DNA of 64,000 nucleotides from Woeseiaceae bacterium (GTDB taxonomy: Bacteria > Pseudomonadota > Gammaproteobacteria > Steroidobacterales > Woeseiaceae). The notes under the pieces are model-generated. The model made no database searches. It was not told the origin of the DNA and was given only the letters and a program-made list of their open reading frames with translations. The translations under genes and the position numbers were made by a program. How positions within the stretch are numbered: the stretch's first letter is position 1; every line of letters starts with the position of its first letter. This document shows, piece after piece, positions 8,536-24,508 of the stretch. Where the stretch lies: NCBI GenBank assembly GCA_021773135.1, contig JAJFKP010000017.1, positions 50,520 through 114,519 of the forward strand, given 5' to 3'.

Positions 8536-9912
8536 ATGGCAGTCAGCTCAGGTCCGGTCTACGAAGTAACGCATAAGATCGATCGCGCGATTGTCGCGGA
8601 CTTCGACCTGTGGCTGCACGAGCACGCGGAAGAAATGCTCTCGGTGCAGGGCATTCATCGTGTGAATATCCATGTTGCCGGCGATACTGATGACGGCAGC
8701 GCCATGCGGGTCTCGCACTATCATTTTGACAATGACGAGCATCTCGCCACCTATCTTGACGGCCCTGCTGCGACGATGCGCCTGGAAGCCGACAGGCAGT
8801 TCGGCGAGCAATTTAGCGTCTCGCGTCGAGTGCTGCACCGTGCAGGCGAATTTCATGAAAATCTCAAACCGGAATCGAAGTGCCTGAATTGCGGCACGAC
8901 GCTTGCAGGTCAATACTGCGGTCACTGCGGTCAGCGAGCACAGAACCGGCTGATCAGCATCTGGGAGCTGATTAGGGACGCGTTCGGCGACCTGCTTGAG
9001 CTCGACTCAAGACTTTGGCGAACGCTCATTCCGCTCACTATCAGGCCAGGAAAGTTAACGCGCGATTATCTTGAAGGCCGGCGAGCACGTTACATGCCGC
9101 CCTTCAGGACCTACCTGGTTCTGAGTATCGTGTTTTTCCTCGTCGCATTTTTTGATCCAACCGAAGAGTTTGGAGTCTTTCTCAATACCGCAGAACCATC
9201 ACCCGCAGCAGAGCAAAACAACCCGTCGCCAACTCAGGAATTTCGCGACGGCGTTAATGATGGGCTGACTGCTGAGGGCGATTCGGATGAGGATGATTCA
9301 GAATTCGTAAGCCCCGAGTCAGCAACACCCGAGCAGGTTGCCGGAAGCGACCAGGGTGTCAGCATTCAGATTGATAGGGACGGCACAACGGCAAATCGTA
9401 ATTGTGACGACATAGATGCCGAAGACCTGCCCGAATGGATGTCGGCCTGGATGACCGCTGACCGCCTGCAAGCCATGTGTGAACGAGTTTTTGCAGATGA
9501 TGGCAAAGCGTTCGCGGGTAAATTGCTGGACAACGTGCCGGCTGCGCTGATTGCATTACTGCCGCTAATGGCATTTATTCTGAAAATTTTGTATCCGCTT
9601 TCGAAACGATATTACGTCGAGCACGTTTTGTTCGTCGTCCATTTCCACGCCTTCGTATTTCTGATCCTTACTTTGCAAATTTTATTTGCTCGACTGACCT
9701 CATTACTCACACTGTCCGGCACGTTGGCGACGATAACGTCCGTAGCAGTAACGCTTTACATCCCCGTCTACTTCTTCAGATCAATGCGGCGTGTCTATCA
9801 GCAACACTGGTTCGTCACGTTTCTGAAATTCGTGGTTCTGACACTGGCGTATACGATCGGCTTGCTCGTGATTCTGATGATTACGGCGGCACTGGCGGCT
9901 TTTACCATCTAA
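8536..9912 (+). CDS. DUF4286-like N-domain fused to a zinc-ribbon/DUF3667-type multi-pass membrane protein
   Basis: CLNCGTTLAGQYCGHCGQ followed by SIWELIRDAFGDLLELDSRLWRTLIPLTIRPGKLTRDYLEGRRARYMPPFRTYL (DUF3667 hallmark). Acidic linker, then C-terminal TM helices. Confidence 0.6.
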   Translation: MAVSSGPVYEVTHKIDRAIVADFDLWLHEHAEEMLSVQGIHRVNIHVAGDTDDGSAMRVSHYHFDNDEHLATYLDGPAATMRLEADRQFGEQFSVSRRVLHRAGEFHENLKPESKCLNCGTTLAGQYCGHCGQRAQNRLISIWELIRDAFGDLLELDSRLWRTLIPLTIRPGKLTRDYLEGRRARYMPPFRTYLVLSIVFFLVAFFDPTEEFGVFLNTAEPSPAAEQNNPSPTQEFRDGVNDGLTAEGDSDEDDSEFVSPESATPEQVAGSDQGVSIQIDRDGTTANRNCDDIDAEDLPEWMSAWMTADRLQAMCERVFADDGKAFAGKLLDNVPAALIALLPLMAFILKILYPLSKRYYVEHVLFVVHFHAFVFLILTLQILFARLTSLLTLSGTLATITSVAVTLYIPVYFFRSMRRVYQQHWFVTFLKFVVLTLAYTIGLLVILMITAALAAFTI

Positions 9913-10034: not shown

Positions 10035-11507
10035 ATGGATAAAAAAAGCATAGGAATCAGTGGTTTGGCTGCTTACACGCCTCCGTTTCGAGTCTGGCTC
10101 GAGGACTGGTGTGACTGGACTGGCAACCAATGGCCAAAGATTCGCGAGGTTGTTGGTCGTAGTTTCCGGGTCCGGGGACGGAATCAGAGCGTATATACGA
10201 TGGCGGCGACGGCCGTCATACGACTGATCGATCAATACGACATTGACCCTGCCCGCGTAAAATTTCTCGGGCTTGGCACCGAATCGAGCACCGATAATTC
10301 AGCTGGTGCGATTATTGTAAAAGGAATGGTCGACCAGGCACTGGTTGCTAAGGGCAAACAGCCGATTGCTCGCAGCTGTGAAGTTCCCGAGTTCAAGCAC
10401 GCCTGTCTCGGCGGTGTCTATGGCATGAAAAACGCGATCCGGCACCTGGCGCTCGATGGCGCTGGCGGTCAGGCTATTGTTGTCTGTGCTGACATTGCAG
10501 AATATGCCCGCGGATCGAGCGGTGAACCCACCCAGGGTGCCGGCGCCGTTGCGATGCTGCTGGAAGAGAATCCCAAACTCGTGGAAGTAGACCTGGTGCA
10601 ATCTGGCTCGGCGTCTGACTACCGCATTATGGACTTCCGCAAACCAATGATGCGATTTTGCGGGCAGGACCGGAGCGAGGGCCACCAGGTTCAGGACTTT
10701 CCCGTTTTTAACGGTAAATACTCGACCACGTGTTACATCGACGAAACCATACATGCATTGAATGACATGTATGAAAAGCGGGGATTGAAAGCTTCCGAAT
10801 ACCTGCGCTCGCTAAAAACTGTATTCATGCATCGACCGTATCGGCGCATGCCGGAAACCGGATGGGCAGTCGCCTACCTGTTTGCACTGGGAAACGGGTC
10901 TCCTGAAGATCGCGCCGAGTTGGCATCGTTCTGCTATGAAGCAGGTGTCGAGCCGGAGGCGTTGTTGGCGGAAATGAGCAGCAAACCTGAAATTGCGTTG
11001 CTCGCCGATCCCGAACGGCTTAACTACGAAGCGTACCCGCTCACCATGGCGGTATTCCGGATATTTCGAGCATCACGCCGCTATCGTCGCGAAATCCTCG
11101 ACAAGCTGGCGCTGGGCAGCGACACAATGCTGGATCTCGGCAACCTGTATACAGCCGCTTTGCCGGCGTGGATCGCAGCAGGGTTTGAACAGGCGGCAGA
11201 CGAAAATCTCGATATGGCAGGTGAAGAACTTCTGACCCTGGGGTATGGCAGCGGAGATGCCGCCGAGGTCATTCCTTTCATTGTCGCCGATAGCTGGCGC
11301 GAGGCAACCGCGGCTATCAGGTTCGGCCAGTCCATGGAATTTGCGGTCGATATCAATGAGGCGCAGTACGATGCGCTGCATGGTGGCAGGCGCCCGCCCA
11401 ATCTCGACTACCTGCCAAGTAACGAGTTCGTCATAGACAAGGTAGGCCGCACTGACGAACGCCAGTTCCAGGACCTCGGAATCGAGTACTACAAATACGT
11501 CAGCTAG
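10035..11507 (+). CDS. mvaS: Hydroxymethylglutaryl-CoA synthase
   Basis: GLGTESSTDNS (catalytic Glu), KHACLGGVYG (catalytic Cys), FMHRPY (His) and GNLYTAALP motifs of HMGS. 490 aa. Confidence 0.85.
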   Translation: MDKKSIGISGLAAYTPPFRVWLEDWCDWTGNQWPKIREVVGRSFRVRGRNQSVYTMAATAVIRLIDQYDIDPARVKFLGLGTESSTDNSAGAIIVKGMVDQALVAKGKQPIARSCEVPEFKHACLGGVYGMKNAIRHLALDGAGGQAIVVCADIAEYARGSSGEPTQGAGAVAMLLEENPKLVEVDLVQSGSASDYRIMDFRKPMMRFCGQDRSEGHQVQDFPVFNGKYSTTCYIDETIHALNDMYEKRGLKASEYLRSLKTVFMHRPYRRMPETGWAVAYLFALGNGSPEDRAELASFCYEAGVEPEALLAEMSSKPEIALLADPERLNYEAYPLTMAVFRIFRASRRYRREILDKLALGSDTMLDLGNLYTAALPAWIAAGFEQAADENLDMAGEELLTLGYGSGDAAEVIPFIVADSWREATAAIRFGQSMEFAVDINEAQYDALHGGRRPPNLDYLPSNEFVIDKVGRTDERQFQDLGIEYYKYVS

Positions 11508-11615
11508 ACCCTAGGCAGAGTCTCGACGGTCTGCAGAATCCACCGAGCGATGCCACATCACGCCGGCACTTGTGGATGATCCCTCGCTATTCCCTGTTGG
11601 CAAAACCGCCCTCGT

Positions 11616-11639
11616 GGAATGTACATATTCTGACATTCC
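11616..11639. promoter_or_regulatory. Inverted repeat GGAATGT-N10-ACATTCC upstream of the cytochrome gene
   Basis: Read directly. It ends 60 nt upstream of ATG 11699. The binding factor is unknown. Confidence 0.3.
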
Positions 11640-11698
11640 GGTGCGCTTGCTATCGTCTCTACTCCCGTGCGCGTTTTGGCAATTTTCGGAGAAACGAT

Positions 11699-12232
11699 AT
11701 GACTGGCAGAGAAAGGAGCGTGGTTGGAACGGCGATCGTTATGGCGATGCTCTCAATGGGGCTTTACGGCGTGAGTTTCGCGGCCGAGCCTACCAGGACC
11801 GAGCGCGAGTTTATTGAAATGCAAACGAGTATCAATGCGACGATGGTCGCCGTTGTTGACTGGGCCGCACATGAAATCTGGGAAGCTGGCTATGCAGAGA
11901 CGATGACCGGCCGCAATTGGCTAACGACCAAGCAATTTGCCATTCAGCTACTGGCATCCGGCACTCTGGTATCACTCGGCGGCAACGGCAAGGCGGATAT
12001 GGGTTGGGCTAATAACGCCGAATGGCAAACATGGTCAGCCAAAATGATCCAGGAAACCGAACGAGCACTGGTTGCCATCGACGCAAAGGACCAGGCTGCG
12101 CTGAAAGAATCCGGGGAAAGGCTGGTCGACACCTGTGAGGGCTGCCACGACGCCTTCAAACCGGACATTCCCACAGAAGGAATACTGCACGTTCCTCATC
12201 ATGAGTACGGAGAGCCGCTCATCACTGAGTAG
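11699..12232 (+). CDS. Class II cytochrome c (cytochrome c'/c556-like), exported
   Basis: GGAGA RBS 7 nt before the ATG, signal-like N-terminus (AIVMAMLSMGLYGVSFAAEP) and a single C-terminal CEGCH heme site, as in four-helix-bundle class II cytochromes. Confidence 0.7.
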   Translation: MTGRERSVVGTAIVMAMLSMGLYGVSFAAEPTRTEREFIEMQTSINATMVAVVDWAAHEIWEAGYAETMTGRNWLTTKQFAIQLLASGTLVSLGGNGKADMGWANNAEWQTWSAKMIQETERALVAIDAKDQAALKESGERLVDTCEGCHDAFKPDIPTEGILHVPHHEYGEPLITE

Positions 12233-12604
12233 GCATAGCGAAATGCTTGCAAGACCGATGCAGGCCCTGCCAATTCCTCCACTGCCGGTCAGGTTGACCA
12301 GTCTGCACCTGCAGGCCGTATCCAGCTCCTCTATTGGCGGTCAGCGTTGTCAGCCATGACCGGCGGGCCGCGGTTTTCAGCGGACTTGTAAGCGCGAGCC
12401 ACAAGCGGCTTTGTTGTAGCCTATTTGGACGAAATGCGCCTGCATTTAACGATTTACCCCCTGGTTGTCCATAACCAACATCCAGTAGTGGCTATAGATA
12501 TCTGAAAATAATTCAGTTTCCGGTTTTTGCCGCACCCAGGCTTCCGAGTCCCGCTCGATTTCGATTTTTTTGCAGTAGAATGGCCGCTCGCAACGGGGAT
12601 ATCG

Positions 12605-14383
12605 ATGCACGTACAAGAAAACAGCAAGGCCGGTTTGTCACAAACGGCACCACTTCCTAAAAGAGGCGACCCGGCTTTTACAGCAGAACCGGTTGCAATG
12701 ACCTCTCACTCGCTTGCGCCAGTTTCGCGGGACGCGGGAGCGCACCTGATTGGTGACATCGTCGGCAATCGTTATGTACTGCAGACGCGGGTCGGTCCCG
12801 GCCGTCTGGGCGTCGTTTACGAGGCGACGGATCAACAGCTAATGCAGGCAAGCCGCAGCGATTACCGCGTCACCATAGAATTGTTTTGTTTGCCGAGCGA
12901 ACAAGCTCACCTGCGGACACGTTTCGCCAGCGAGTTTGTGGACCTGCTCTCTTTATCTCATCCCAATATCGTAAGAATTTTAGATTTTGGAATCGATGGC
13001 GAAACGATCTTTTTTACCACCGAGTTGATGGAAGGTACTTCGCTTAACTCGATGCTCGACGCTGACTCGACCGATTCGTTTTCAGACAAAGAGATTCTGG
13101 CGGTACTTCGTAACGTTTCAGACGCGCTGCAATATGCGCACGCCAAAGGTTTCATTCACGGCGGAATCAGTTCGGATTCAATATTTATAACGACTGACTA
13201 TGAAGTAAAGATTTCGGACCTTGCCATTGAGGTATTGAAACGGACTCTCGGCAATCCTGACGACCAACTCGCGGCCAGTTCGCAACAGGCGCTCAAACCG
13301 ACTGCAGATGTGTTCGGAATCGCGGCGGTTGCTTACGAACTTCTGGCAAGCGTTGCACCTTATGAAGGACTGCCCCGCGGCCACGCGCGCAAGCGCGGAT
13401 TGCGGCTGCGACGAATTAAAGGCATTGCGCGTCACCGGTGGAAGGCACTCGTAAGCGCCCTTCAACTCCGGCCGGTCGATCGGACGCAGACGGTATCGCA
13501 ATTCGCCACAGACTTCGGTATTACCGGAACGGAATCTCTGCAGACCATTGAAGCAGGTGAAAAAGCGAAAGAGCGACGCTTGTTCTTGCCGGCTTTGCTG
13601 CTGGTTACCGTTGCGGCAGCGGTTTCGTTGGCGCAATTCGGTGTTTGGAATCCCGCCGAAGTTCTGTCAGACGTTCGAGAGCGGATTAGCGCCGGTGTAC
13701 CAACAGCCGTTACCGATAATGAACTTGTTGCGGAAACAATTACCGCAGAAGACCTTGCTGCAGGCGACGCTGTCATCGTCGACAACCAGCTCGACGAGGT
13801 CCTGCTGCAAACGACGCCCGATCCGTCAAGTGAGCCAGCAGGCGCCGAATCCGGCCCGGTTGAGGTCCCAATGGCTGATGCCGCCGTGCCTGCCGATCCA
13901 GGCTTTGTGGCGCAGGAGCCTGCGGCCCTCAATGAAACCCCGCTTCGGGAGGCGGCAAGCAGCGTCAGCGAACTCGCTGTCGCTGATACGACCGGAACGA
14001 TCGCGGTAGTGGCTGAAGCGCCGATTGCCGCACCGATAGCTGTGCCTCCCGCAATTGCTTTTGCCGAGGAAGCCGTGGTCGTGCGCGAAGGCCAGGATAT
14101 GGCCTCAGTTGTTCTGCAGCGTGTTGGCGACGCCGAGACCGAAATGCCGATATTTTGGTGGACCGGTGACAACACTGCGATCGCTGATCTCGACTATGCA
14201 GATCTTGGCGTTCGATCCGAGACTTTCGCGGCAGGCGTTGAATTCATTTCACTGTACGTGCCGTTAATTTCGGATTCGCGGGCCGAACAAAGAGAATCAT
14301 TCTATGTCTTTGTGGCGTCAGATCTCGAGCCAGAAACTGTTAGTGACCGCATTGAAGTTATCGTCAACGACGACGATCGATGA
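12605..14383 (+). CDS. Membrane-anchored Ser/Thr protein kinase-like protein (predicted pseudokinase) with C-terminal Calx-beta domain
   Basis: Kinase fold motifs GPGRLGVVY, SHPNIVRILDF and DVFGIAAVAYELL, but VTIE replaces VAIK and HGGISSDS replaces HRDLKPxN. One TM (LFLPALLLVTVAAAVSLAQFGVW), an Ala/Pro/Glu linker, and a Calx-beta-like end (EGQDMASVVLQRVGDAETEMPIFWWTGDNTAIADLDYAD...ESFYVFV). The start is uncertain; the ORF is open from 12527. Confidence 0.7.
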   Translation: MHVQENSKAGLSQTAPLPKRGDPAFTAEPVAMTSHSLAPVSRDAGAHLIGDIVGNRYVLQTRVGPGRLGVVYEATDQQLMQASRSDYRVTIELFCLPSEQAHLRTRFASEFVDLLSLSHPNIVRILDFGIDGETIFFTTELMEGTSLNSMLDADSTDSFSDKEILAVLRNVSDALQYAHAKGFIHGGISSDSIFITTDYEVKISDLAIEVLKRTLGNPDDQLAASSQQALKPTADVFGIAAVAYELLASVAPYEGLPRGHARKRGLRLRRIKGIARHRWKALVSALQLRPVDRTQTVSQFATDFGITGTESLQTIEAGEKAKERRLFLPALLLVTVAAAVSLAQFGVWNPAEVLSDVRERISAGVPTAVTDNELVAETITAEDLAAGDAVIVDNQLDEVLLQTTPDPSSEPAGAESGPVEVPMADAAVPADPGFVAQEPAALNETPLREAASSVSELAVADTTGTIAVVAEAPIAAPIAVPPAIAFAEEAVVVREGQDMASVVLQRVGDAETEMPIFWWTGDNTAIADLDYADLGVRSETFAAGVEFISLYVPLISDSRAEQRESFYVFVASDLEPETVSDRIEVIVNDDDR

Positions 14384-14483
14384 AGCGGCGCTTTTTGCCA
14401 CTTTAATCCAATCCTCCCGCGACGGAGAAACGTGCCTCAGCGACCGGTGAGGATTGATCTTTAGTCCACGGCTGAAAAGCAAC

Positions 14484-15062
14484 TCAGACTGGGCTCGTAT
14501 ACCGGGCCAAAGTATCCGAAAACTCGGAGTTTAATCGTTCCCATTCCAGCTTAAACCAAGGCGTAAAAACATCAGGCGTCTCCGCTAACTCCCGATCAAG
14601 CTCCCTCGCACTCAAGTATCTCAACGCCTCGATCTCTGTTTCGTTTGCCTGCGGGTCTTCCGCCAGCGACCCAAGGAACACGTGACAAAATTCGTTTTCC
14701 GCACCCAGCGCACCGAAAGTTGCCTGATAGGTAAAGCGATAGACGAACTCCAGATCAGCTTGCGTTTGTAGTTCATCACTGAGGCGACGGCTTGTGGCTA
14801 CCTCGATTGATTCACCCTGTCGGGGATGACTGCAACAGCTGTTGGACCAGAAACCCGGCCACAGTCTTTTTCCCTGTGCGCGTTGCTGTAGCAGAAGTTC
14901 ACCGCTGCGGTTGAACAAAAAAACCGAAAACGCACGATGCAAAACGCCATCGCCATCGTGGCACGCTGCTTTGCTCATCGTTCCTGACTGGTTGTCATTC
15001 TCGTCGACGAGAATAAGAAGCTCGTCTTCCGAAGATACAATTTTTGCTGATTCCTGTGACAC
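14484..15062 (-). CDS. idi: Isopentenyl-diphosphate delta-isomerase, type 1 (Nudix)
   Basis: HRAFSVFLFN, LLLQQRAQGKRLWPGFWSNSCCSHP, ENEFCHVF. Starts 10 nt after the upstream gene. Confidence 0.9.
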   Translation of the reverse strand: MSQESAKIVSSEDELLILVDENDNQSGTMSKAACHDGDGVLHRAFSVFLFNRSGELLLQQRAQGKRLWPGFWSNSCCSHPRQGESIEVATSRRLSDELQTQADLEFVYRFTYQATFGALGAENEFCHVFLGSLAEDPQANETEIEALRYLSARELDRELAETPDVFTPWFKLEWERLNSEFSDTLARYTSPV

Positions 15063-15072
15063 CTGGTTCCCG

Positions 15073-17295
15073 TTAAATCCGAATTTGAATTATTGTGTAT
15101 CCCGCGTTGACCAAAGCGCAAGACACAGCATCCGTTTTCCCCGGGCAGAGCGCTATGATCGACCCGCCACCGCCGGCGCCTGTCAGTTTTGCGCCAACTG
15201 CCCCGGCAGAGCGCGCGATGCCTGTCATTTGTTCGAGATCCGGAGACGAGACGCCGATTGCACTCAGTAAACCGTGACACACGTTCATCAACTCACCCAG
15301 CCGCCCGTAGTCTGACGCCTCGAGTGCTTCGACACCAGCCAACGCGACTTCATCAATGCTATTGAATATGCCCGTATACAGCGCCTTGTTATTTTCGTAT
15401 CGTCCGCGGACGCCGCTGACCAAAGACTTCGTATTTCCTCGGGTATGACTTGCGGCAACGACCAAAGGTAACGGCTCATCGAGATGTACGACGGTCGGAC
15501 CCGAAGCGTTACCCTTGCGGAACAGAATCGGTTTGGCGAATGTCGCGACATGATTGTCGATGCCTGATGGCGTTCCGTGGGTTATGGTCTCGCACTTCAG
15601 CGCCAGTTCGTTCACGTCGGCGTTTGTCAGGGACATTTTGATGAACTTTGCCGCAGCGCGTATCACAGCAACCGCAAAAGCCGCTGATGAGCCGAGACCC
15701 ATGCCCAGCGGAATACGGGCATTGACCGTTAGGTCGATGTCACGCGTGGTGCAGCCCAATTCTCTGAGAATCAGGTCGACGATGGCTGCTGCGCCGTCCA
15801 GACCAGTACTCCCTGCGCTCCATTGCTGCTGGATTCCCCAATCTGCGATAGCCAGTCGCACCCCATGCTGACCCTCCTCAATGTCGGCAGCCACAGCCCG
15901 ATCGATGGGTATCGCAAGCGCATGTCGGTCGTGAACGACCGCGTGCTCTCCAAACAAAATTACTTTGCCTGCCGCGGCATCGTCACGATCGCGTAGCAAC
16001 TGAGGCACGGTGCTGCTGGCATGAACGACTTTGAGTTCCTTGGCCTTGCGGATCTTTATTTCACCTGACTCAATCATTGCATCGACGACATCGGTGAAAA
16101 TTTCGTCAGGTATACCTGCTGATGCCGCAACACTGCGGGCGTGTAATCGCATATGGCCTTTTTGAATGCCGCTGGATACAAGCGCTTTGAGTGCCGCAAA
16201 GTTTTGCGCCAGACCGACCGCACCCATCAGTTCGGCAAGCTCGGTTGAACTCGTTACCCCGCTGATCGCTAGCCCAAGCGAGGCGCCAGGATTTGATTGC
16301 AGTGACCCGCCGACAATGCCGGGCTTCAGCGGCAGCTTAAGCTCACCGCACAGATCACCAGCGTCTCCGACAAACCAGTCAGTCAGCGCTCGATAGCGGC
16401 CTTTTGTTGCCGCATACGCATGCGCGCCGGCCTCGATAGCCCGCCAGTCGTTCCCTGTAGCAATCGCCACGGCGTCGATGCCATTCATAATGCCTTTATT
16501 GTGTGTCGCCGCCCGATACGGGTCCGCAAGCGCGAACCGGTTGGCCCTGACGATCCCGTCGCGAATTGCCAGAGCAGTATCGGCATTGGCATCCAGCGCG
16601 GAAAGCGGGACATTCCCGCGGGCGATGACCAGTGACGCATCGGCAAGGTTTGAGAGGATACGCAGCCCGACTCGGCCGCCGGCGACGCGCTCGATCTCGG
16701 GGCCCAGGGCCTCACAAAGTGTATTGACAACGTTCGCGCCCATCGCGTCGCGCGTATCGACATGCAAATGCACCACGACGATTGGCTCACCACCTTCCAG
16801 TTCGTGCTGTAAAAACTCGATGCCCCTGACGCCACCACCTCGCGCAACCAGGCTTGGCTGGAGTTTGTTCGCGAACTCGATAAGCGCTGACTTTGCTGTC
16901 TCCAGGCGCTGGATATATTGATCCGGAGCGGCCACATCCGACACCTGTATTTGTCCGATCAGCACGGGCTCACTGCCGGTGACAGTGAATCCACCGCTGT
17001 CGCGAAACAGCTTTGCGGCACCGCTCACGCCGGCCACAATCGATGGCTCCTCTACCACCATTGGTACAAGATAGTCCTGTCCGTTCACCAGGAAGTTGGG
17101 TGCAACGCCCAAGGGCAATCCAAATACGCCGACTACGTTCTCGATCATGTGGTCAGCGTTTCTTACCGGCAGCAAAGGCTGTCCGCCAGACAGCATCGCC
17201 GACATTTTCGAGTCAAGGTAACCGCGTTCCCGCAGTACCTCTATGCGCTCGCTAATCGATTTGCGATACAGCCCACTGATTCGCGAGTCGCTCAT
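15073..17295 (-). CDS. Bifunctional class II HMG-CoA reductase (aa 1 to about 423) / mevalonate kinase (aa about 442 to 740)
   Basis: HMGR motifs EEPSIVAG, DAMGANVVN, GIVGGS, GHMRLHARS. A linker (ASSTVPQLLRDRDDAA) is followed by GHMP-kinase motifs GKVILFGEHAVVH, PLGMGLGSSAAFAVA, TPSGIDN, KLTGAGGGGS, all in one uninterrupted frame. Confidence 0.85.
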   Translation of the reverse strand: MSDSRISGLYRKSISERIEVLRERGYLDSKMSAMLSGGQPLLPVRNADHMIENVVGVFGLPLGVAPNFLVNGQDYLVPMVVEEPSIVAGVSGAAKLFRDSGGFTVTGSEPVLIGQIQVSDVAAPDQYIQRLETAKSALIEFANKLQPSLVARGGGVRGIEFLQHELEGGEPIVVVHLHVDTRDAMGANVVNTLCEALGPEIERVAGGRVGLRILSNLADASLVIARGNVPLSALDANADTALAIRDGIVRANRFALADPYRAATHNKGIMNGIDAVAIATGNDWRAIEAGAHAYAATKGRYRALTDWFVGDAGDLCGELKLPLKPGIVGGSLQSNPGASLGLAISGVTSSTELAELMGAVGLAQNFAALKALVSSGIQKGHMRLHARSVAASAGIPDEIFTDVVDAMIESGEIKIRKAKELKVVHASSTVPQLLRDRDDAAAGKVILFGEHAVVHDRHALAIPIDRAVAADIEEGQHGVRLAIADWGIQQQWSAGSTGLDGAAAIVDLILRELGCTTRDIDLTVNARIPLGMGLGSSAAFAVAVIRAAAKFIKMSLTNADVNELALKCETITHGTPSGIDNHVATFAKPILFRKGNASGPTVVHLDEPLPLVVAASHTRGNTKSLVSGVRGRYENNKALYTGIFNSIDEVALAGVEALEASDYGRLGELMNVCHGLLSAIGVSSPDLEQMTGIARSAGAVGAKLTGAGGGGSIIALCPGKTDAVSCALVNAGYTIIQIRI

Positions 17296-18299
17296 CGCTG
17301 CTCCCTGCCGGATACTTTCACGCCGTTCAGGTCCAGTTCGACCGGCAATTCGACAAAGCCGTGCTCGCCAGCGGCTTCACAAAAACTCGAAATTGAATTG
17401 CTGTTGGTGCCCAATACGATGCCGATATCTCCGCCGCCGGATCCACATGGCTTGTACACGACATCACGGCCATAAGCCAAGCGGTAAATTTCATTGTGAC
17501 CGCCAGCGAAAATTCCGAGTGCCTGTGCAGCGCTGAACCGATGCAGTGTTGCTGTGTAGGCCCGTATCGATTCAACCATCCCGGCGGCGTCGGCTCCGGC
17601 CCACTTAACGGCAACGTTTTCCGCCGCTGCAATGAATGGAAGCCAATTTCGATCAGTCGGGCTGCCGGTGTCCAGCCGCCTGAGATGGGAGGGTGTATCA
17701 GCGGAATGGCCACTCCAGATGACACGATACAATAAATTGTCGGGCCAGGAATGATGCGCTGCCACAACGTTTTCATGCATGCGGTATTCAATCACGCCGC
17801 CGTTGAGACTGGTCGCAATATCAATCCCGCTGCCTAGTCCGCGCTGCAAACTCGCATGTGCCTGGTAGGCGAGTGCACCAGGTTCCGCTGTCTGCTCACA
17901 ACACTGGCATAACGCAACCACCAGGGCGGTCGTTGCGGCAGCACTGGAGCCGAGCCCGAATTTCTGGCCTGATTCCTGATCAGTGAATGCTGTCGTATCC
18001 ACACTGATTGCCAGTGGGTCAGGATCACCGTTGACTGCGCTGGTCCATGCGGCCTCTATCAGTTCCAATTCGGGGTGGCGGTCCTGCCACTCGAGCTTGC
18101 CATCTGCACTCACCCGGAAGCGCCACTCTCCGTCTGCGTAACCGGGTGTTCGCACGATGTGAAACTCGTCTTTCGCTGCCTCGATTCGTACGATTGCCCG
18201 GCTGTCTAATGCCATTGATATTGCAGGCGCGCCAACCAAAACCGCGTATTCGCCGGCTACAATGGCCTTGCCCGGCGCCGAGACCATAATGGGGCTCAT
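17292..18299 (-). CDS. mvaK2: Phosphomevalonate kinase (GHMP family)
   Basis: SAPGKAIVAGEYAVL start motif and GLGSSAAATTALV. ATG 18299 overlaps the decarboxylase stop (ATGA), and its stop overlaps the HMGR-MK start. The longer ORF to 18566 is read as spurious. Confidence 0.8.
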   Translation of the reverse strand: MSPIMVSAPGKAIVAGEYAVLVGAPAISMALDSRAIVRIEAAKDEFHIVRTPGYADGEWRFRVSADGKLEWQDRHPELELIEAAWTSAVNGDPDPLAISVDTTAFTDQESGQKFGLGSSAAATTALVVALCQCCEQTAEPGALAYQAHASLQRGLGSGIDIATSLNGGVIEYRMHENVVAAHHSWPDNLLYRVIWSGHSADTPSHLRRLDTGSPTDRNWLPFIAAAENVAVKWAGADAAGMVESIRAYTATLHRFSAAQALGIFAGGHNEIYRLAYGRDVVYKPCGSGGGDIGIVLGTNSNSISSFCEAAGEHGFVELPVELDLNGVKVSGREQR

Positions 18300-19258
18300 G
18301 TTGACCGCAGCAACCTTGCACCAGCGCCAAGTTTGCTGTGCATCAGGTCCTGCACGCCGGGCGTCTGTCGCAGCGCCGCCATAACGACATCGACAGAATC
18401 TGGGAGACAGATTGCTTTGACCTGAGGGCCGGCATCCATCGTGAAGAAGACAGCATGCCCCTGGTCCTGCAGCGTGCGAATGGCCTCCAGGCAGGACAGC
18501 GTGGCACTGTTCCAATAGACGATAGGCGGCTTTGAACTCCACATGACTGAATGCATTTTCAGGCAATTGTGTTCTGCAACCTCTGCAAGGCTGTTGAAGT
18601 CTTGTCGCAGCACTGCCGCTCTCGCTACCTCCAGGTCTTCGTCCTGCCGAGCCAGCCAGCTTGAATAAAAGGGAGATGTTTTCTCACCCCGTACCATTGC
18701 CTCACCGGACCCCACCGGCTTTTTCCCTTTCTCCGTTACCGCAACGACAACTTCGAGTGGCCATGGCTGGCTTTGCAGTAGTGGCTGCACCGAAATCTGT
18801 TCCTCGCCCGCAGTCAACTCAACGATGCCACCGTAAAGCGAGCGTGCGGCGGACCCGGAGCAGGCGCCGGCAAGTCGCGCAAGTGTCTGCGTATCAATCG
18901 TTGTTCGTGAAGACGCGGCGGCCGCGACAACGAGTGCCGCAAAGGCAGACGACGACGACGCAAGTCCGGCGCCTATCGGGAAATTGACTTCGCTAATGAC
19001 TTCCGCGGCCGCGCGCTTCGAACCGACGACAAGGTCCAGGCAGGCGCTCACCCGATCCAGCATTCCAGGTGCAGGGGCATCGTTGACACGCAGCGTGTCG
19101 CGGCCCGGGCGATCGCAAAACTCTACCGACATCGTTGTGCGCAGACTGTCCAGTGTTAAGGAGAAAGAGCTGACTGCGGGCAGATTCGCCTCATGGTCAC
19201 GTTTTCCCCAGTACTTGATCAGCGCGATATTAGGTTGTGCCTGTGCTACGGCTTTCAT
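18296..19258 (-). CDS. mvaD: Diphosphomevalonate decarboxylase
   Basis: NIALIKYWGKRD, FPIGAGLASSSSAFAALV, TMDAGPQV motifs. 320 aa. Confidence 0.9.
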   Translation of the reverse strand: MKAVAQAQPNIALIKYWGKRDHEANLPAVSSFSLTLDSLRTTMSVEFCDRPGRDTLRVNDAPAPGMLDRVSACLDLVVGSKRAAAEVISEVNFPIGAGLASSSSAFAALVVAAAASSRTTIDTQTLARLAGACSGSAARSLYGGIVELTAGEEQISVQPLLQSQPWPLEVVVAVTEKGKKPVGSGEAMVRGEKTSPFYSSWLARQDEDLEVARAAVLRQDFNSLAEVAEHNCLKMHSVMWSSKPPIVYWNSATLSCLEAIRTLQDQGHAVFFTMDAGPQVKAICLPDSVDVVMAALRQTPGVQDLMHSKLGAGARLLRST

Positions 19259-19374
19259 ATTTATGCGGCTTCTTGCCTGGCGCGATCAACGCTGAATATC
19301 TGGAGCCGGATTATAGCGCCGGAGCGCATCCAAAGCAGGATTCGTGTACGCTTGTCGCGATGACAGGAGTGTGC

Positions 19375-20277
19375 ATGATTGAGTCGGACAGTGAAGATTT
19401 CGTCCGAAGAATGGGTACCTACACGGATCGCACGGAGCGCTGCCTGGATCGTGTACTGCGGCCAGCCGACAAGGTGCCAGCGAGGCTTCATGAAGCGATG
19501 CGTTACGCTGTTCTCAACGGCGGCAAGCGCATTCGACCTTTACTGGTCTATGCTGCGGGAGCCTGTCTCGGCGTCGCGCCGGAAAAACTGGACGTTCCGG
19601 CTACAGCAATCGAACTCCTGCACGCCTTTTCGCTGGTGCATGACGATCTTCCCGCAATGGACGATGACGATCTGCGTCGTGGCCAGCCAACTGTGCATCG
19701 AAAATTCGACGAGGCCACGGCGATACTGGCAGCCGATGCGCTGCAGCCACTGGCTTTTCATACGATAGCAGCGGCGGTGGCGCTCGACGATACGGAAAGC
19801 CGGCAACTCACAAAGCTGATAGCAGATGCCTGCGGCTCGCGCGGCATGACTGGCGGACAGGCGATTGATCTCGCCTCGGAAGGCAAGAACCTTTCCATTG
19901 ACGAACTTACTGAAATGCACGGCCTCAAGACCGGCGCGCTGATTCGTGCCGCCGCCATGTCACCGTGCTACCTCGCGGGCGACCTCTGCGAGAGTTACTG
20001 GACGGCAATGGACGGTTTTTCCCGCGACATTGGCTTAGCCTTCCAGATTCGCGACGATATTCTGGACGTAACCGGTCAAACCGATGTCATCGGCAAACCG
20101 GCTGGATCAGATCAGAGTATGAACAAGGCAACGTGGCCGGCGATATTTGGCATGGACGAGAGCGTCCGTCGTTGCGACGAGCTGCTCGCCGCGTCTATGC
20201 AACACCTCGATACCTTTGGACTGCAGGCCGAACCGCTGCGACTGCTTGCCCATTTTATTGTTTCACGGCGCCGCTGA
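19375..20277 (+). CDS. ispA: (2E,6E)-farnesyl diphosphate synthase
   Basis: GGKRIRPLL, FARM LVHDDLPAMDDDDLRRG, SARM FQIRDDILD. ATG 19375 has AGGAG 7 nt upstream. Confidence 0.9.
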   Translation: MIESDSEDFVRRMGTYTDRTERCLDRVLRPADKVPARLHEAMRYAVLNGGKRIRPLLVYAAGACLGVAPEKLDVPATAIELLHAFSLVHDDLPAMDDDDLRRGQPTVHRKFDEATAILAADALQPLAFHTIAAAVALDDTESRQLTKLIADACGSRGMTGGQAIDLASEGKNLSIDELTEMHGLKTGALIRAAAMSPCYLAGDLCESYWTAMDGFSRDIGLAFQIRDDILDVTGQTDVIGKPAGSDQSMNKATWPAIFGMDESVRRCDELLAASMQHLDTFGLQAEPLRLLAHFIVSRRR

Positions 20278-21434
20278 TGGCGCGACGTCGCATCCTGCAT
20301 GTCGACATGGATGCTTTTTACGCATCAGTCGAGCAACGGGACAATCCGTCACTACAAGGCAAGCCAGTGGTGGTCGGTGGCAATACCCGCGGCGTCGTCG
20401 CGGCAGCGAGCTATGAAGCTCGGCAGTTCGGTATCCGTTCGGCAATGCCCATGCGTGATGCGCTCAGGCGCTGCCCTGATTTGTGTCGGGTCCCGCCGCG
20501 CATGTCTCACTATCAGACTGTGTCTAAGGAAGTTTTCCGCATCTTTCGCGAATTTACGCCGTTGGTCGAGGGTCTCTCACTGGACGAAGCGTTTCTCGAT
20601 GTTAGCCAGAGCCTGCAGCTGTTTGGCGACGAAGTCTCAATTGCTGCAGAAATAAAACGTCGCATACGTAAATGCACCGGGCTTACCGCATCGGTGGGTG
20701 TTGCACCCAACAAGCTGGTTGCAAAAATTGCTTCCGATCTTGATAAGCCGGACGGCCTTTGCGTGGTAACGCCCGCCAACCTGCGGACAACCCTTGATCC
20801 GTTGCCGGTGCAGGTCATTCCGGGTATTGGCAAGGAAACGCTCGCGCGTCTGCAACGAATCCCCATTAACACGGTTGCCGATCTGCGGCTCGCTGCAGAC
20901 AGGGACCTTGAATCCGTTTTCGGACGTTTTGCCGCACGGACCCGGGAGCGAGCATCCGGCATCGATGAGCGACCGGTAGTTGCGTCGCGCACGGACAAAT
21001 CGATCAGCGCGGAGGAAACGTTCGACGTTGATCTGAGTAATCGCAGAGACCTGCGCCGCCATTTGCTGCGCTTGAGTGAAAAAACAACGGGACGACTGCG
21101 ATCGAAGGAGCTTGTTGCCGGGACGGTCCAGGTCAAAATAAGGCGTGACGACTTTTCGACCTGTACGCGGCAGTGCGCGCTGCGCCCACCGTCCAATGGC
21201 ACCGAGACCATCTATGCGGCGGCCGGCAGGCTACTCGATGACTGGATGGCGGAGAACCCGGACGCGAAGATTCGGCTGCTTGGCGTGGGTGGCAGTGAAC
21301 TGGTGCGTGATGCGCAGCCCGATTTGTTCGCGCCGGCCGTGACTGCCGGTGGTTCAGCACTCGATCAGACGGTAGACCAGATTCGGGATCGGTTCGGAGA
21401 TCTTTCGCTGGGTCGCGCACGGACGCTGGATTAG
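20277..21434 (+). CDS. dinB: DNA polymerase IV (Y-family translesion polymerase)
   Basis: ILHVDMDAFYASVEQRDNPSLQGKPVVVGG, SLDEAFLDV, GVAPNKLVAKIASD. The ATG shares one nucleotide with the ispA TGA (TGATG). Confidence 0.9.
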   Translation: MARRRILHVDMDAFYASVEQRDNPSLQGKPVVVGGNTRGVVAAASYEARQFGIRSAMPMRDALRRCPDLCRVPPRMSHYQTVSKEVFRIFREFTPLVEGLSLDEAFLDVSQSLQLFGDEVSIAAEIKRRIRKCTGLTASVGVAPNKLVAKIASDLDKPDGLCVVTPANLRTTLDPLPVQVIPGIGKETLARLQRIPINTVADLRLAADRDLESVFGRFAARTRERASGIDERPVVASRTDKSISAEETFDVDLSNRRDLRRHLLRLSEKTTGRLRSKELVAGTVQVKIRRDDFSTCTRQCALRPPSNGTETIYAAAGRLLDDWMAENPDAKIRLLGVGGSELVRDAQPDLFAPAVTAGGSALDQTVDQIRDRFGDLSLGRARTLD

Positions 21435-21494: not shown

Positions 21495-23156
21495 ATGTAT
21501 ACGAGTTTCTTTGGCCTGAACGAAAAGCCATTTACGATAACGCCTGATCCGCGCTATTTGTTCATGAGCGAACGCCATGGCGAGGGCCTGGCACACCTTG
21601 TTTACGGCGTCACCGAAAGCGGTGGCTTCATCCAGCTCACCGGCGAAGTCGGCACCGGCAAGACCACGCTGGTGAGAACGCTTCTCGGCCAGATACCTGC
21701 TGAAGTCGATATCGCACTGATTCTCAATCCACAGCTTACCTCGCTCGAGTTTTTGCTCGCGATATGTGAAGAGTTAGGCGTAGCGATTCCTTCTATCAAG
21801 AACAGCTCGAAGGCAATGGTTGATGCCCTTAACCGGCATCTGCTGGAGGCGCACTCTCGCGGACGCCGGGTAATTCTGCTCATCGATGAAGCACAGAATT
21901 TGTCAGAGGGCGTGCTGGAACAACTGCGTCTCCTGACCAATCTGGAAACCGCGCGCCAGAAACTGCTACAGATTATTCTTATCGCGCAACCGGAGCTCAG
22001 GGAGAAATTATCTCAGGAAAGTCTGCGCCAACTGGCACAGCGCATTACTGGCCGATACCACCTGGAACCGTTGTCTCGTGAAGAGGCCGCGAAATATATC
22101 GATCATCGGCTGCGAGTCGCGGGCGCGCTGACAGAAATTTTTACGCCGGCCGCAAAGCAGGAAGTCTATCGGATATCAGGGGGTGTACCCCGGGTCATGA
22201 ACGTGATCTGCGATCGTGCACTACTCGGCGCCTACAGCCGTGAATCCCGCACCGTCGACAAAGACCTGGTCAGGAAAGCAGCCGGTGAGGTTGCAGGCCA
22301 GAAAGTTACCCCGATTTTCCTGAGGTGGCTGTTGCCTGTGCTCGGCATCGCCGCCCTGGTCGCAGTGATTTCCGTTCTATGGCCGGTGTTCGGTGAACGG
22401 TCCACGCCGGATGACGCCAGCAGTATAGTTTCGCCATCCGTTGACAGCAGCGGCGAGGAATCTGCCGCCCTGGCTGCGTATGTACCAGCAACCGAGGCGA
22501 CCGGCACGCCGGAGGTCATTCCGGACGCCGAACCTGCGGCTATCGATATTGATGCGCTGTTTGCAGGCTATGACGACGGCGAGAGCTTTCGAACGTTGTT
22601 CGAACTTTGGAATGAAACCTTTGACAGTGCTCGTGGAACGGCCTGTGAACAGGCCACGGCGGCGGGCCTGCGGTGCTACTTTCAACGCGGCACGTGGACG
22701 ACGCTGCAACAGCTGGATCGACCGGCAGTTATTACGCTGACCCGCAGTGACGGATCAACCTGGAGAGCAGCACTTGTCGGTCTGGACGAAAAGAAAGCAC
22801 GGCTGATGGTCAACGGAGGCGAAGTTGTGGTGCCGATCGCCAGCCTCGCTCCGTACTGGTTTGGACAGGCCCTGATATTGTGGCGCCCGCCGACCGGCAG
22901 TGACCAGCCGATAGGGCCTGCTTCGAGCGGTGAGAACGTCCGCTGGCTGAGAGAGAGTCTCGCTGCCCTGGATGACGAATATGCAGTGGCCGCGGACGCG
23001 GCGGACGCCTTTGACGAGGAACTCGTTGGGCGGTTGCAGGCGTTTCAGCGCAAGCACAGGCTCGAAGCCGATGGCATTGCCGGCCTGAAAACGCAGATCA
23101 TCATTAATTCACTGCTGGAGACAGACGACTTGCCGCGCCTGTCGACCAGTCCTTAG
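21495..23156 (+). CDS. gspA: ExeA/GspA-like AAA ATPase with C-terminal peptidoglycan-binding domain
   Basis: FGLNEKPFTITPDPRYLFMSERH, Walker A GEVGTGKTT, Walker B LLIDEAQ, one TM, and a C-terminal LQAFQRKHRLEADGIAGLKT PG-binding repeat. Confidence 0.8.
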   Translation: MYTSFFGLNEKPFTITPDPRYLFMSERHGEGLAHLVYGVTESGGFIQLTGEVGTGKTTLVRTLLGQIPAEVDIALILNPQLTSLEFLLAICEELGVAIPSIKNSSKAMVDALNRHLLEAHSRGRRVILLIDEAQNLSEGVLEQLRLLTNLETARQKLLQIILIAQPELREKLSQESLRQLAQRITGRYHLEPLSREEAAKYIDHRLRVAGALTEIFTPAAKQEVYRISGGVPRVMNVICDRALLGAYSRESRTVDKDLVRKAAGEVAGQKVTPIFLRWLLPVLGIAALVAVISVLWPVFGERSTPDDASSIVSPSVDSSGEESAALAAYVPATEATGTPEVIPDAEPAAIDIDALFAGYDDGESFRTLFELWNETFDSARGTACEQATAAGLRCYFQRGTWTTLQQLDRPAVITLTRSDGSTWRAALVGLDEKKARLMVNGGEVVVPIASLAPYWFGQALILWRPPTGSDQPIGPASSGENVRWLRESLAALDDEYAVAADAADAFDEELVGRLQAFQRKHRLEADGIAGLKTQIIINSLLETDDLPRLSTSP

Positions 23157-23177: not shown

Positions 23178-23801
23178 ATGTCATTTATTCTTGACGCACT
23201 GAAAAAGTCCGAAGCTGAGCGACAGCGCCAGAATGCGCCGGGAATCGCGAGTATCCCCGAGCGGCACAAAGCGAAAACATCCGGCAAATGGATATGGCTC
23301 GTGACGGGATTGCTGGCTGTCAATCTGCTGGCTCTCGGCGCTCTGCTTCTTTGGAAAAGTGGTGGCCAAGCACCGGTGGAGACGCCGATCGCCTCGACTC
23401 AACTCGAGCCGCCCGCCGCCACGTTTTCTGAAATGGTAACCGAGGTCAAGCGCAGCCAGCGCAGCGTTGGTCCACCGGCAGAGGTGCAACAGCAGACCGA
23501 GGACGATGCTGTGACTACGACTGCGCCACCTGCGCCGGCAGAGAACGCGATGCGCGGACAGGTCAATACAGGCCTGGAATCGTTCAATGACCTGCGAGTG
23601 AAGGGCGAACTGCAGCTGCCCGACATGCATTTGGACATTCACGTATACAGCGGCGCGCCTGAGGATCGATTCGTGTTCGTCAACATGGCGAAGTACAAAG
23701 AGAACGCGACCTTAAGCGAAGGCCCTGTTGTTAAGGAAATCACGCCGGATGGTGTTGTTCTCCAGCACCGCGACAAAGTGTTTCTGCTGCCGCGGCAATA
23801 G
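23178..23801 (+). CDS. gspB: GspB/ExeB-like general secretion pathway protein B
   Basis: MSFILDALKKSEAERQ N-terminus, a single TM, and a C-terminal conserved block (LPDMHLDIHVYSGAPEDRFVFVN). Immediately follows the ExeA-like gene. Confidence 0.7.
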   Translation: MSFILDALKKSEAERQRQNAPGIASIPERHKAKTSGKWIWLVTGLLAVNLLALGALLLWKSGGQAPVETPIASTQLEPPAATFSEMVTEVKRSQRSVGPPAEVQQQTEDDAVTTTAPPAPAENAMRGQVNTGLESFNDLRVKGELQLPDMHLDIHVYSGAPEDRFVFVNMAKYKENATLSEGPVVKEITPDGVVLQHRDKVFLLPRQ

Positions 23802-23827: not shown

Positions 23828-24508
23828 TCAGCTTTGCTGCTGAATAATAGTGTCTCCAGCCGGATCGATGAGATCCGTTGATTCGTTGCGGGCGTTGTTG
23901 ACCTTTCGGTCCACCGGCCAGGTACGAAATGCAGGTGCGTCCGCTGTGACTTCTTCCAGCAATTCTGTGTCACCATCCAGCCAGCGCTTTGCGTTTTCAG
24001 GCTGCAGCACCACAGGCATGCGATGGTGTACCTGCGCAAGAAAATCGTTGGCAGCCGCAGTTACTATAGTGGTTGTTTGCAATGACTCGTCTGAGTCCTT
24101 GCTGTCCCAATGCTCCCATAGTCCGGCGAATGCGAACGGCGTTCCATCAGCCAGCGAAATGAAGTACGGGATCTTGATATCGCCCTCACGATGCCACTCG
24201 TAAAAGCCGTCCGCGAGGATCAGACAACGGCGCTTTCGATACGCGTTCCGGAAGGACGGTTTTTCCGCAACAGTTTCGGAGCGGGCGTTGATCATTCGAT
24301 TTCCGATGGACGGGTCCTTGGCCCAGAACGGAACCAATCCCCAGCGCAGCATGGTTAGCTCGGGCGATTGGTTTTCATCCCTGCGAATTGCGGCAATGTA
24401 CTGTGTCGGCGCAATGTTATAGCGGGGCTTCACGTCGATCGATTGGGCCACGCCGAATAACGCGGCGACTGCTTCGCTGGGGGAATAGAAGGCGAATCGT
24501 CCGCACAT
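23828..24508 (-). CDS. yedK: SOS response-associated peptidase (SRAP/YedK family, abasic-site processing)
   Basis: MCGRF N-terminus with catalytic Cys2, NIAPTQ, LRWGLVPFWAKD, YEW motif. 226 aa. Confidence 0.9.
   Translation of the reverse strand: MCGRFAFYSPSEAVAALFGVAQSIDVKPRYNIAPTQYIAAIRRDENQSPELTMLRWGLVPFWAKDPSIGNRMINARSETVAEKPSFRNAYRKRRCLILADGFYEWHREGDIKIPYFISLADGTPFAFAGLWEHWDSKDSDESLQTTTIVTAAANDFLAQVHHRMPVVLQPENAKRWLDGDTELLEEVTADAPAFRTWPVDRKVNNARNESTDLIDPAGDTIIQQQS

Follow-up and report, generated by a model that had tools for sequence, protein, structure and literature searches.

A putative membrane pseudokinase with a Calx-β ectodomain at a mevalonate-gene junction in Woeseiaceae

What is a kinase-like membrane protein with a heavily substituted active site doing in the middle of a mevalonate (MVA) gene cluster? 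The question is posed by a 64,000-nucleotide stretch of DNA from a Woeseiaceae bacterium (GenBank assembly GCA_021773135.1, contig JAJFKP010000017.1, positions 50,520 to 114,519; hereafter the window), in which one gene encodes a protein with an N-terminal kinase fold, a single transmembrane helix and a C-terminal Calx-β domain (Table 1). Judged by its sequence, this protein is a membrane-anchored Hanks-fold pseudokinase that is presumably catalytically inactive. The reading that we favour, with some confidence though well short of certainty, is that it acts as a bitopic receptor of the inner membrane, with an ectodomain that binds either Ca2+ or a ligand in the envelope and a non-catalytic kinase module that signals as a scaffold or allosteric partner.

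An initial annotation of the window, made from the letters alone, had proposed a Hanks-kinase scaffold with a glycine-rich loop and the αC Glu, and all of these are borne out. The domain scores well above the cut-offs of two Pfam families (Pkinase, PF00069, 65.0 bits against 31.7; PK_Tyr_Ser-Thr, PF07714, 67.7 bits against 23.1), and its NCBIfam matches are partial and confined to the kinase domain (PASTA kinase model NF033483, 88.4 bits against a cut-off of 450). An AlphaFold2 (AF2) model built with a 66-sequence alignment adopts the kinase fold over residues 50-310, with block means of the predicted local distance difference test (pLDDT) mostly at 82-97 and a dip to 60-68 at residues 211-230. 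Searched with Foldseek against the Protein Data Bank, its top matches were Stk1, PknB and PknA (probability 1.0, TM-score normalized to the target 0.74-0.77).

We called motifs on a 121-sequence MAFFT alignment of 111 active bacterial kinases, nine close relatives and M. tuberculosis PknB, and cross-checked the calls by profile hidden Markov model (HMM) alignment and AF2 secondary structure. The positions that hold the canonical β3 Lys and the catalytic Asp in active kinases are occupied by Glu92 and by Gly187, the latter being Asp in 110 of the 111. The spacing around both is canonical, with 18 residues from 92 to 110 and 18 from 187 to 205. The substitutions first read from the sequence, Lys to Glu in β3 and HRDLKPxN to HGGISSDS with loss of the catalytic Asp and of the loop Lys and Asn, are thus upheld, as is the missing APE motif, which reads A(S)SQ. 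His185 of HRD is kept in both the MAFFT and HMM alignments, as is Asp235 of subdomain IX, and Gly-loop position 67, Gly in 94 of the 111 active kinases, is Arg. The change of DFG to DLA, originally counted among the losses, is real as a motif change, but the metal-binding Asp205 is retained, so the loss affects two canonical catalytic residues rather than all three. By sequence definition, a pseudokinase lacks at least one of the β3 Lys, the HRD Asp and the DFG Asp; one loss suffices, and the window protein qualifies because the first two are absent, although the DFG Asp is present. A single phmmer pairwise alignment with PknA had put Arg88 forward as the basic residue of β3, but the 121-sequence and HMM alignments, the strand register and the spacing all favour Glu92.

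Beyond the kinase fold, hydropathy and the model agree on the single transmembrane helix originally placed there, the hydrophobic segment forming part of one continuous AF2 helix at residues 312-344. The positive-inside rule, together with the arrangement seen in all known receptor Hanks kinases, leads us to infer an N-in/C-out topology. The linker that follows shares only 22-44% identity among orthologues, and its first estimate of about 170 residues proved too long: the stretch from the membrane to the Calx-β domain (from about residue 477) spans about 135, of which 111 (366-476) are predicted to be disordered. The C-terminal domain, originally described as Calx-β-like, does score as Calx-β (PF03160, 37.3 bits against a cut-off of 27, with profile positions 6-118 of 119 covered), and the AF2 model predicts seven strands at residues 483-586 with block-mean pLDDT mostly at 68-90 and local dips. 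This part of the protein matches the first Ca2+-binding domain (CBD1) of Drosophila CALX in a phmmer search (3rb7, E=4e-4), with D557, E561 and E564 opposite acidic Ca2+-site residues. The domain's acidic residues comprise E495, D530, D557, E561, E564 and D589-591, at positions that we take to correspond to the Ca2+ sites of NCX1.

Both folded domains are under strong purifying constraint despite the loss of catalytic residues, whereas the linker evolves freely. Ratios of non-synonymous to synonymous substitution (dN/dS; Nei-Gojobori), calculated over four loci, namely the window and the related loci L001, L002 and L006, ranged from 0.06 to 0.12 in the kinase fold and from 0.08 to 0.18 in the Calx-β domain. 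They were 0.23-0.39 for the N-terminal tail, 0.23-0.52 for the tail and transmembrane region together and 0.2-0.8 for the linker. A 14-sequence alignment of the clade that carries Glu at β3 (the Glu clade), with members 30-72% identical to the window protein, shows Glu92, His185, Ser192 and Asp205 to be invariant, along with E495, D530, D557, E561, E564 and D589 of the Calx-β domain. As for the substitutions themselves, the β3 Glu occurs in all close orthologues and Ser192 is likewise kept, whereas position 187, that of the catalytic Asp, drifts between Gly, Glu, Asn and Asp. We would guess that the kinase pocket, conserved in its acidic character (Glu92, Glu110, Ser192, Asp205 and the intact Gly-loop), binds a cation or ligand and is no empty relic.

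Under the receptor reading, the periplasmic Calx-β domain, held on a long, flexible, acidic tether, would bind Ca2+ or, in a manner that depends on Ca2+, a component of the envelope. Occupancy by ligand would then alter the oligomeric or conformational state of the protein through its single transmembrane helix, and the dead kinase domain could relay this change non-catalytically, as a scaffold or allosteric partner of a cytoplasmic protein, perhaps a catalytically active Hanks kinase or some other effector. The former ATP pocket would survive as a conserved acidic pocket (Glu92, Glu110, Ser192, Asp205 and the Gly-loop) that probably accommodates a cation or ligand, or fixes a conformation, rather than supporting catalysis.

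Several observations weigh against this proposal. An intact Gly-loop, αC Glu and DFG Asp would be unusual in a pocket that does not bind nucleotide, and absence of canonical residues does not preclude activity, as WNK, SelO, SidJ and POMK show (PMC12599244). On the periplasmic side, the acidic residues E561, E564 and D589-591 are kept by only about half of the wider family described below. No FHA, PP2C or second kinase domain was found among the 49 scanned window open reading frames (ORFs) of at least 192 amino acids, so these offer no candidate partner. Finally, adjacency to MVA genes persists at deep divergence of the pseudokinase, at 41-43% identity in locus L018.

The window protein is one member of a larger family. 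An exhaustive HMMER search with a family profile against 1.84 billion representatives returned, among its best 150 matches, 125 proteins shorter than 1000 amino acids, and 108 of these 125 combine a kinase fold, a transmembrane helix and a single C-terminal Calx-β domain by a crude hydropathy test. The family thus comprises at least 108 clusters at 50% identity and, as the weakest match listed still has E=1e-75, must be larger than that list. Other searches under-reported it: word-index searches gave about ten clusters, titled 'protein kinase [Woeseiaceae bacterium]' or bearing no name, and a scan of GTDB representative genomes gave two loci only, because its patterns were clade-specific. The initial annotation had not recognised the architecture as a characterised family; it is indeed uncharacterised and did not appear in the literature searched, but it is not an isolated oddity. 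Members share a change of the HRD Arg to Gly (113 of 120 alignable sequences) and, in the Calx-β domain, a WWT motif (W518 and W519 at least 92% conserved) with invariant A525 and D530. The window protein fits this definition, having the same domain order of kinase fold, transmembrane helix, linker and single C-terminal Calx-β domain with WWT, and His-Gly at HRD.

Within the family, catalytic residues have been lost to very different degrees. Among the 120 alignable members, 42 keep the β3 Lys, catalytic Asp, Asn and DFG Asp (GxGGxG / K / E / HGD / N / DFG) and so look, from these residues, catalytically competent. Elsewhere the β3 position is Gln (34 sequences), Glu (17), His (14) or another residue. 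A neighbour-joining tree separates Gln, His and Glu clades as well as a small 'GFG' clade in which the Lys is present but the DFG Asp is lost. HGD, the Asn and the DFG Asp are still found in many proteins of the Gln and His clades. The Glu clade includes the window protein, and its named members come from Woeseia sp. and Woeseiales metagenome-assembled genomes. Deeper members of this clade still have HGD or even HRD, and the branch to which the window protein belongs is the most degenerate one because the catalytic Asp was lost there.

Two further members were observed in passing. At L003 (9216-11848), a distant GFG-clade protein, P0011 (β3 Lys kept, HGN, DFG to GFG), lies divergently adjacent to a gene for Hcp, the tube protein of the type VI secretion system; the Hanks kinase PpkA controls this secretion system in Pseudomonas. 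At L004 (3479-5477), the P0010 orthologue consists of two overlapping ORFs, one for the kinase and transmembrane helix (541 amino acids) and a separate one for Calx-β (134 amino acids), a split that is probably a frameshift error rather than real, the contig having 2x long-read coverage.

These patterns bear on the possibility that the window protein is an atypical active enzyme, in which Arg67 of the Gly-loop replaces the β3 Lys, as in WNK and POMK, or in which a different reaction takes place, for example AMPylation or glutamylation, known from SelO and SidJ. Besides those precedents (PMC12599244), the retained Gly-loop, αC Glu and DFG Asp, the strong purifying selection on the domain and the many Gln- and His-clade proteins that retain HGD, Asn and the DFG Asp would fit such an activity. 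So would the way in which a basic residue at position 67 tracks loss of the β3 Lys, being present in 61 of the 68 sequences without the Lys and in two of the 52 with it (Fisher p=1.6e-23, a value that ignores phylogeny). That association, however, stems from few evolutionary events, and two Glu-clade proteins have other residues at position 67, Glu in P0245 (43% identical and probably located at the junction that the window gene occupies) and Gln in P0247 (from L018, where it lies at that junction), so Arg67 is not an essential replacement there and we dropped the idea that it is an obligatory β3-Lys substitute. Moreover, the catalytic base, loop Lys and Asn are all gone (G187, S189, S192), position 187 is free to drift among orthologues, and a Glu at β3 would repel the phosphates of ATP. 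We therefore regard an active enzyme as very unlikely.

If the pseudokinase is instead a non-catalytic receptor, its neighbours might supply the signal or the output. The nearest is a class II cytochrome c (c'-like), encoded upstream by an ORF whose longest version, from a TTG at 11570, probably over-extends the N-terminus. In a functional pair, this periplasmic haem protein would sense nitric oxide, carbon monoxide or redox state and dock on the Calx-β domain. Throughout the window's clade (the window, L001, L002 and L021), the two genes are neighbours in the same orientation, both are missing from L008-L011, and both products are predicted to be exposed to the periplasm. The genes are nevertheless 373 bp apart, with conserved promoter-like elements in the gap, the corresponding junction in L018 holds an oppositely oriented TPR gene and no cytochrome gene, and tblastn with the window cytochrome found no copy in 57 of 60 related loci, its only hit being L021, in the window's own clade (L006 and L017 were left out). 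There is accordingly no support for a fixed partnership of the pseudokinase with cytochrome c', and we consider such a pair highly improbable.

The MVA genes themselves pose the question with which we began. The cluster at 10035-20277 encodes a complete pathway, comprising HMGS, IDI type 1 (175.6 bits against a cut-off of 127), an HMGR-MVK fusion, a PMK-like GHMP kinase, MDD and FPP synthase, which confirms the flanking genes named when the pseudokinase was first described as wedged, inexplicably, inside a mevalonate cluster. Downstream, 100 bp lie between the end of the pseudokinase gene and that of the convergent IDI-HMGR/MVK-PMK-MDD unit; upstream, the pseudokinase and cytochrome genes are 373 bp apart. 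The window's arrangement is repeated in L001, L002 and L021, all in its clade (HMGS 95-97% identical where computed), and L006 has an HMGS match at the corresponding upstream position. In L008, L009 (HMGS 91% identical), L010 and L011 (83%), the same 20-kb region is collinear and HMGS abuts IDI, without pseudokinase or cytochrome. No significant remnant of either was found by tblastn in the loci that lack them, and the junction shows no anomaly in GC content and no meaningful flanking repeats as signs of insertion.

The absence from L008-L011, taken as an outgroup by HMGS identity, was at first read as a single insertion of cytochrome c' and pseudokinase in one clade. This was overturned by L018, in which a Glu-clade pseudokinase (P0247, HGD, 41-43% identical) occupies the HMGS/IDI junction with a 506-amino-acid TPR gene on the opposite strand replacing the cytochrome, and by L030, in which a 50%-identical pseudokinase C-terminus adjoins IDI. 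The pseudokinase gene is therefore an old, fast-evolving resident of the junction in part of the Woeseiaceae, lost or never acquired in some lineages and with a variable companion.

Elsewhere, the family keeps different company. In L014 (9772-12183) and L025 (5447-7851), a Glu-clade pseudokinase is convergent with a GT9 heptosyltransferase gene followed by a GT4 gene, of the type found in lipopolysaccharide core synthesis, and this context, shared by two independent loci, hints at an envelope theme for some members. Other Glu-clade neighbours are a methyltransferase and PhyH (L032), prpBCD (L004), TctA (L024) and an extracytoplasmic-function sigma factor (L023); none of the Glu-clade relatives in L004, L014, L023-L025 and L032 has MVA genes beside it. 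Members of other clades adjoin genes for MgtC and GGDEF, GSDH, cupin and Hcp proteins, and no neighbour recurs across the ten different contexts examined in the family.

Might the pseudokinase nonetheless regulate the MVA pathway, sensing an envelope- or isoprenoid-related signal and controlling the flanking genes or their enzymes? It is flanked by HMGS and IDI in the window and in L001, L002 and L018, has HMGS and cytochrome c' upstream in L021, HMGS upstream in L006 and IDI downstream in L030, and it keeps the junction even where, in L018, the protein is only 41-43% identical. Yet the entire 20-kb region is collinear in these genomes, and adjacency reflects shared ancestry, since all MVA-linked cases fall in one bacterial family with that collinear region. 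Relatives with HMGS 91% and 83% identical have an intact cluster without the gene, which converges on the IDI-HMGR operon and has a separate, conserved region upstream, and Glu-clade relatives adjoin GT9/GT4, prpBCD, TctA or methyltransferase and PhyH genes. The pseudokinase thus fails a co-occurrence test for a component of the cluster, as MVA genes occur without it (L008-L011) and it occurs elsewhere without them, and conservation of the neighbourhood, suggested at the outset as a check, does not hold. We judge a regulatory role in the pathway extremely doubtful. The mevalonate position is mostly explained as a permissive site between convergent transcription units, patchily occupied, and a functional tie lacks supporting evidence.

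That the gene is a decaying, functionless remnant of a kinase gene, as its lost catalytic residues, absence from some close relatives and rapid overall divergence might suggest, is contradicted by the selection analysis (dN/dS of 0.06-0.18 in both folded domains), the intact reading frame in every orthologue with good sequence, the pocket and Ca2+-site residues invariant across 14 sequences and the conserved upstream elements, and is almost certainly not the case.

The gene model is well founded, and the ORF and all codon coordinates first assigned to it are exact. Among the nine full-length close relatives (P0001-P0010 minus the partial P0008), eight have no N-terminal extension past the corresponding Met, the exception being P0002 (618 amino acids). 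A GGGGA box and the ATG at 12605 are invariant in the alignment of the window with L001, L002 and L006; the relatives and this conserved start favour the ATG over a longer version from a TTG at 12527, which is unsupported. The gap between the cytochrome and pseudokinase genes is mostly variable in this alignment and contains three conserved elements, the palindrome CTGAAAATAATTCAG (one exact copy in the whole window), a TAGAAT hexamer and the Shine-Dalgarno-like box. With conserved upstream elements of its own, the pseudokinase gene probably has its own promoter, although a strict two-hexamer promoter scan did not flag TAGAAT. An Rfam scan of the window found no regulatory RNA.

Table 1. Features of the pseudokinase gene and its surroundings, in window coordinates.
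Feature	Position	Strand	Evidence or remark
Class II cytochrome c (c'-like)	11699..12232	+	Signal peptide; C-terminal CEGCH; Pfam Cytochrom_C_2, 32.5 bits
Palindrome CTGAAAATAATTCAG, candidate operator	12502..12516	+	Conserved block in alignment of window, L001, L002 and L006; about 60 bp upstream of TAGAAT
-10-like hexamer TAGAAT	12576..12581	+	Invariant in four-locus alignment; putative promoter element
Shine-Dalgarno-like GGGGA	12595..12599	+	5 nt 5' of ATG 12605; invariant in four loci
Membrane pseudokinase coding sequence with Calx-β ectodomain, complete	12605..14383	+	ORF and translation; 592 amino acids plus stop
N-terminal tail, residues 1-49	12605..12751	+	Disordered, poorly conserved; pLDDT <50 for residues 1-39
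Cytoplasmic kinase-fold (pseudokinase) domain, residues 50-310	12752..13534	+	Pfam, AF2, Foldseek, dN/dS
Glycine-rich loop G64-P-G66-R67-L-G69	12794..12811	+	Intact GxGxxG; alignments
Glu92 replacing β3 (VAIK) Lys	12878..12880	+	Lys in 110/111 active kinases; within predicted strand 88-95
αC Glu, E110, kept	12932..12934	+	Alignment; model helix 103-115
Degenerate catalytic loop HGGISSDS for HRDxKPxN	13157..13180	+	R to G186, D to G187, K to S189, N to S192
DLA for DFG	13217..13225	+	Metal-binding Asp205 kept
Single transmembrane helix, residues 326-344	13580..13636	+	Hydropathy scan; KAKERR just before (positive inside)
Disordered acidic Ala/Pro/Glu/Val-rich linker, residues 366-476, presumed periplasmic	13700..14032	+	pLDDT <50
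C-terminal Calx-β domain, residues 477-592	14033..14380	+	Pfam, AF2 strands, phmmer, dN/dS
Weak hairpin, terminator-like match	14435..14452	+	Within the 100-bp gap between convergent pseudokinase and IDI ends; count of such matches not above chance expectation

The surrounding region holds several features of separate interest. HMGS is very widely distributed and well conserved in Woeseia metagenome bins (3685 matches at E<=1e-30, the best 120 of the 3685 being 82-93% identical). On the reverse strand at 15073-17295, a 740-amino-acid ORF fuses a class II HMGR (TIGR00532, 365 bits) to a mevalonate kinase (TIGR00549, 251 bits). The fused ORF is also kept in L002, L008, L010 and L030; it is split in L001 and shortened in L018, where a sequencing error is possible (the contig name records about 3x coverage); a literature search found no report of an HMGR-MVK fusion. 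The longest version of the PMK ORF (17292-18566, reverse strand, 424 amino acids, TTG start) overlaps MDD (18296-19258, reverse strand) by 270 bp. Its orthologues have 335-338 amino acids, so the true start is probably near 18299, with a 4-bp overlap with the MDD stop codon.

Directly upstream of HMGS, a forward-strand ORF at 8536-9912 encodes a 458-amino-acid DUF4286-DUF3667 fusion, which is conserved in L002, L010 and L018, split in L001 and L009, and represented in L008 by a single 361-amino-acid ORF with a DUF3667 match only; L010 and L011 have an extra DUF4399 gene between it and HMGS. At the other end of the cluster lie two DNA-damage-tolerance genes, for a DinB/IMS-family polymerase (19965-21434, forward strand) and a SRAP peptidase (23828-24508, reverse strand). 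They flank a GspA-like protein with AAA+ and peptidoglycan-binding domains (21495-23156) and a GspB-like protein with a T2SSB domain (23178-23801), an arrangement that is syntenic across Woeseiaceae loci.

Taken as a whole, the family joins a Hanks kinase fold through one transmembrane helix to a Calx-β domain and is absent from the catalogues we consulted, a review of bacterial pseudokinases (PMC12599244) and the bSTK atlas. Apparently active members alongside several independently degenerate branches provide a comparison set for the repurposing of a kinase fold, with the β3 Lys changed to Gln, His or Glu, gain of an Arg in the Gly-loop and stepwise loss of the catalytic Asp. A bolder and, in our estimation, unlikely view is that the family is an unrecognised bacterial receptor-kinase system responsive to Ca2+ or envelope ligands, in which the pocket of dead members would serve as a cation or small-ligand switch and these members would pair with active paralogues or other effectors in a manner similar to HER3. 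If true, the exchange of the β3 Lys for a Gly-loop Arg would represent a new route of kinase active-site rewiring. More narrowly, the window protein is a candidate periplasmic sensor of Ca2+ or the envelope in Woeseiaceae, which are abundant in marine sediments. For specialists in pseudokinases and bacterial Ca2+ signalling, the family offers a useful evolutionary series, and for annotators a lesson that a mevalonate neighbourhood should not be taken as evidence of function.

Membrane-bound Hanks-type pseudokinases are already known as a kind; the family that carries Calx-β is undescribed. Bacterial pseudokinases are almost unexplored experimentally, according to a 2025 review which, with the bSTK atlas, catalogues ActPs1-3, GLW, CP1, DYD and DLHK as well as EssB/YukC, SidJ and SelO (PMC12599244). 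The word 'Calx' appears in neither source, and our literature search found no paper that combines Calx-β with pseudokinases or Hanks-type kinases. None of seven catalogued families matches the window protein; as described, none has a β3 Glu, HGG or a Calx-β domain.

The best sequence and structure matches are the receptor Hanks kinases PknB, Stk1 and PknA (1mru, 4eqm, 4x3f), which have the same topology of cytoplasmic kinase, transmembrane helix and extracytoplasmic sensor. The window protein differs from them in having a Calx-β ectodomain rather than PASTA repeats and in its loss of the β3 Lys, the HRD Arg and Asp, the loop Lys and Asn, and APE. Also similar are MviN/ActPs3, EssB/YukC and GLW, each likewise a membrane-attached, degenerate kinase fold with a scaffolding or regulatory role, proposed or demonstrated (PMC12599244), yet each is degenerate in its own way. 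ActPs3/MviN has VALT at β3, no DFG and a deletion in the activation loop, whereas the window protein keeps the DFG Asp and Gly-loop and has no such deletion; GLW has that motif in place of HRD and Leu or Trp at β3, against HGG and Glu92 here; EssB has a degraded Gly-loop, which is intact here; and the DYD pseudokinases have a β3 Arg, a lost αC Glu and DYD, where the window protein has Glu, a retained αC Glu and DLA (PMC12599244). The ectodomain belongs to the same Pfam family as CBD1 of CALX/NCX (3rb5, 3rb7, 3ead) and has residues that align with its acidic Ca2+-coordinating positions, but it stands alone at the C-terminus of a bitopic protein from a bacterium, presumably faces the periplasm and not the cytoplasm, and carries the family-specific WWT. 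A proposed likeness in overall design, a ligand-binding ectodomain and a single transmembrane helix joined to a dead kinase that signals through an active partner, is found in HER3 and the plant pseudokinase co-receptors, with which homology is limited to the kinase fold and the comparison is one of analogy only.

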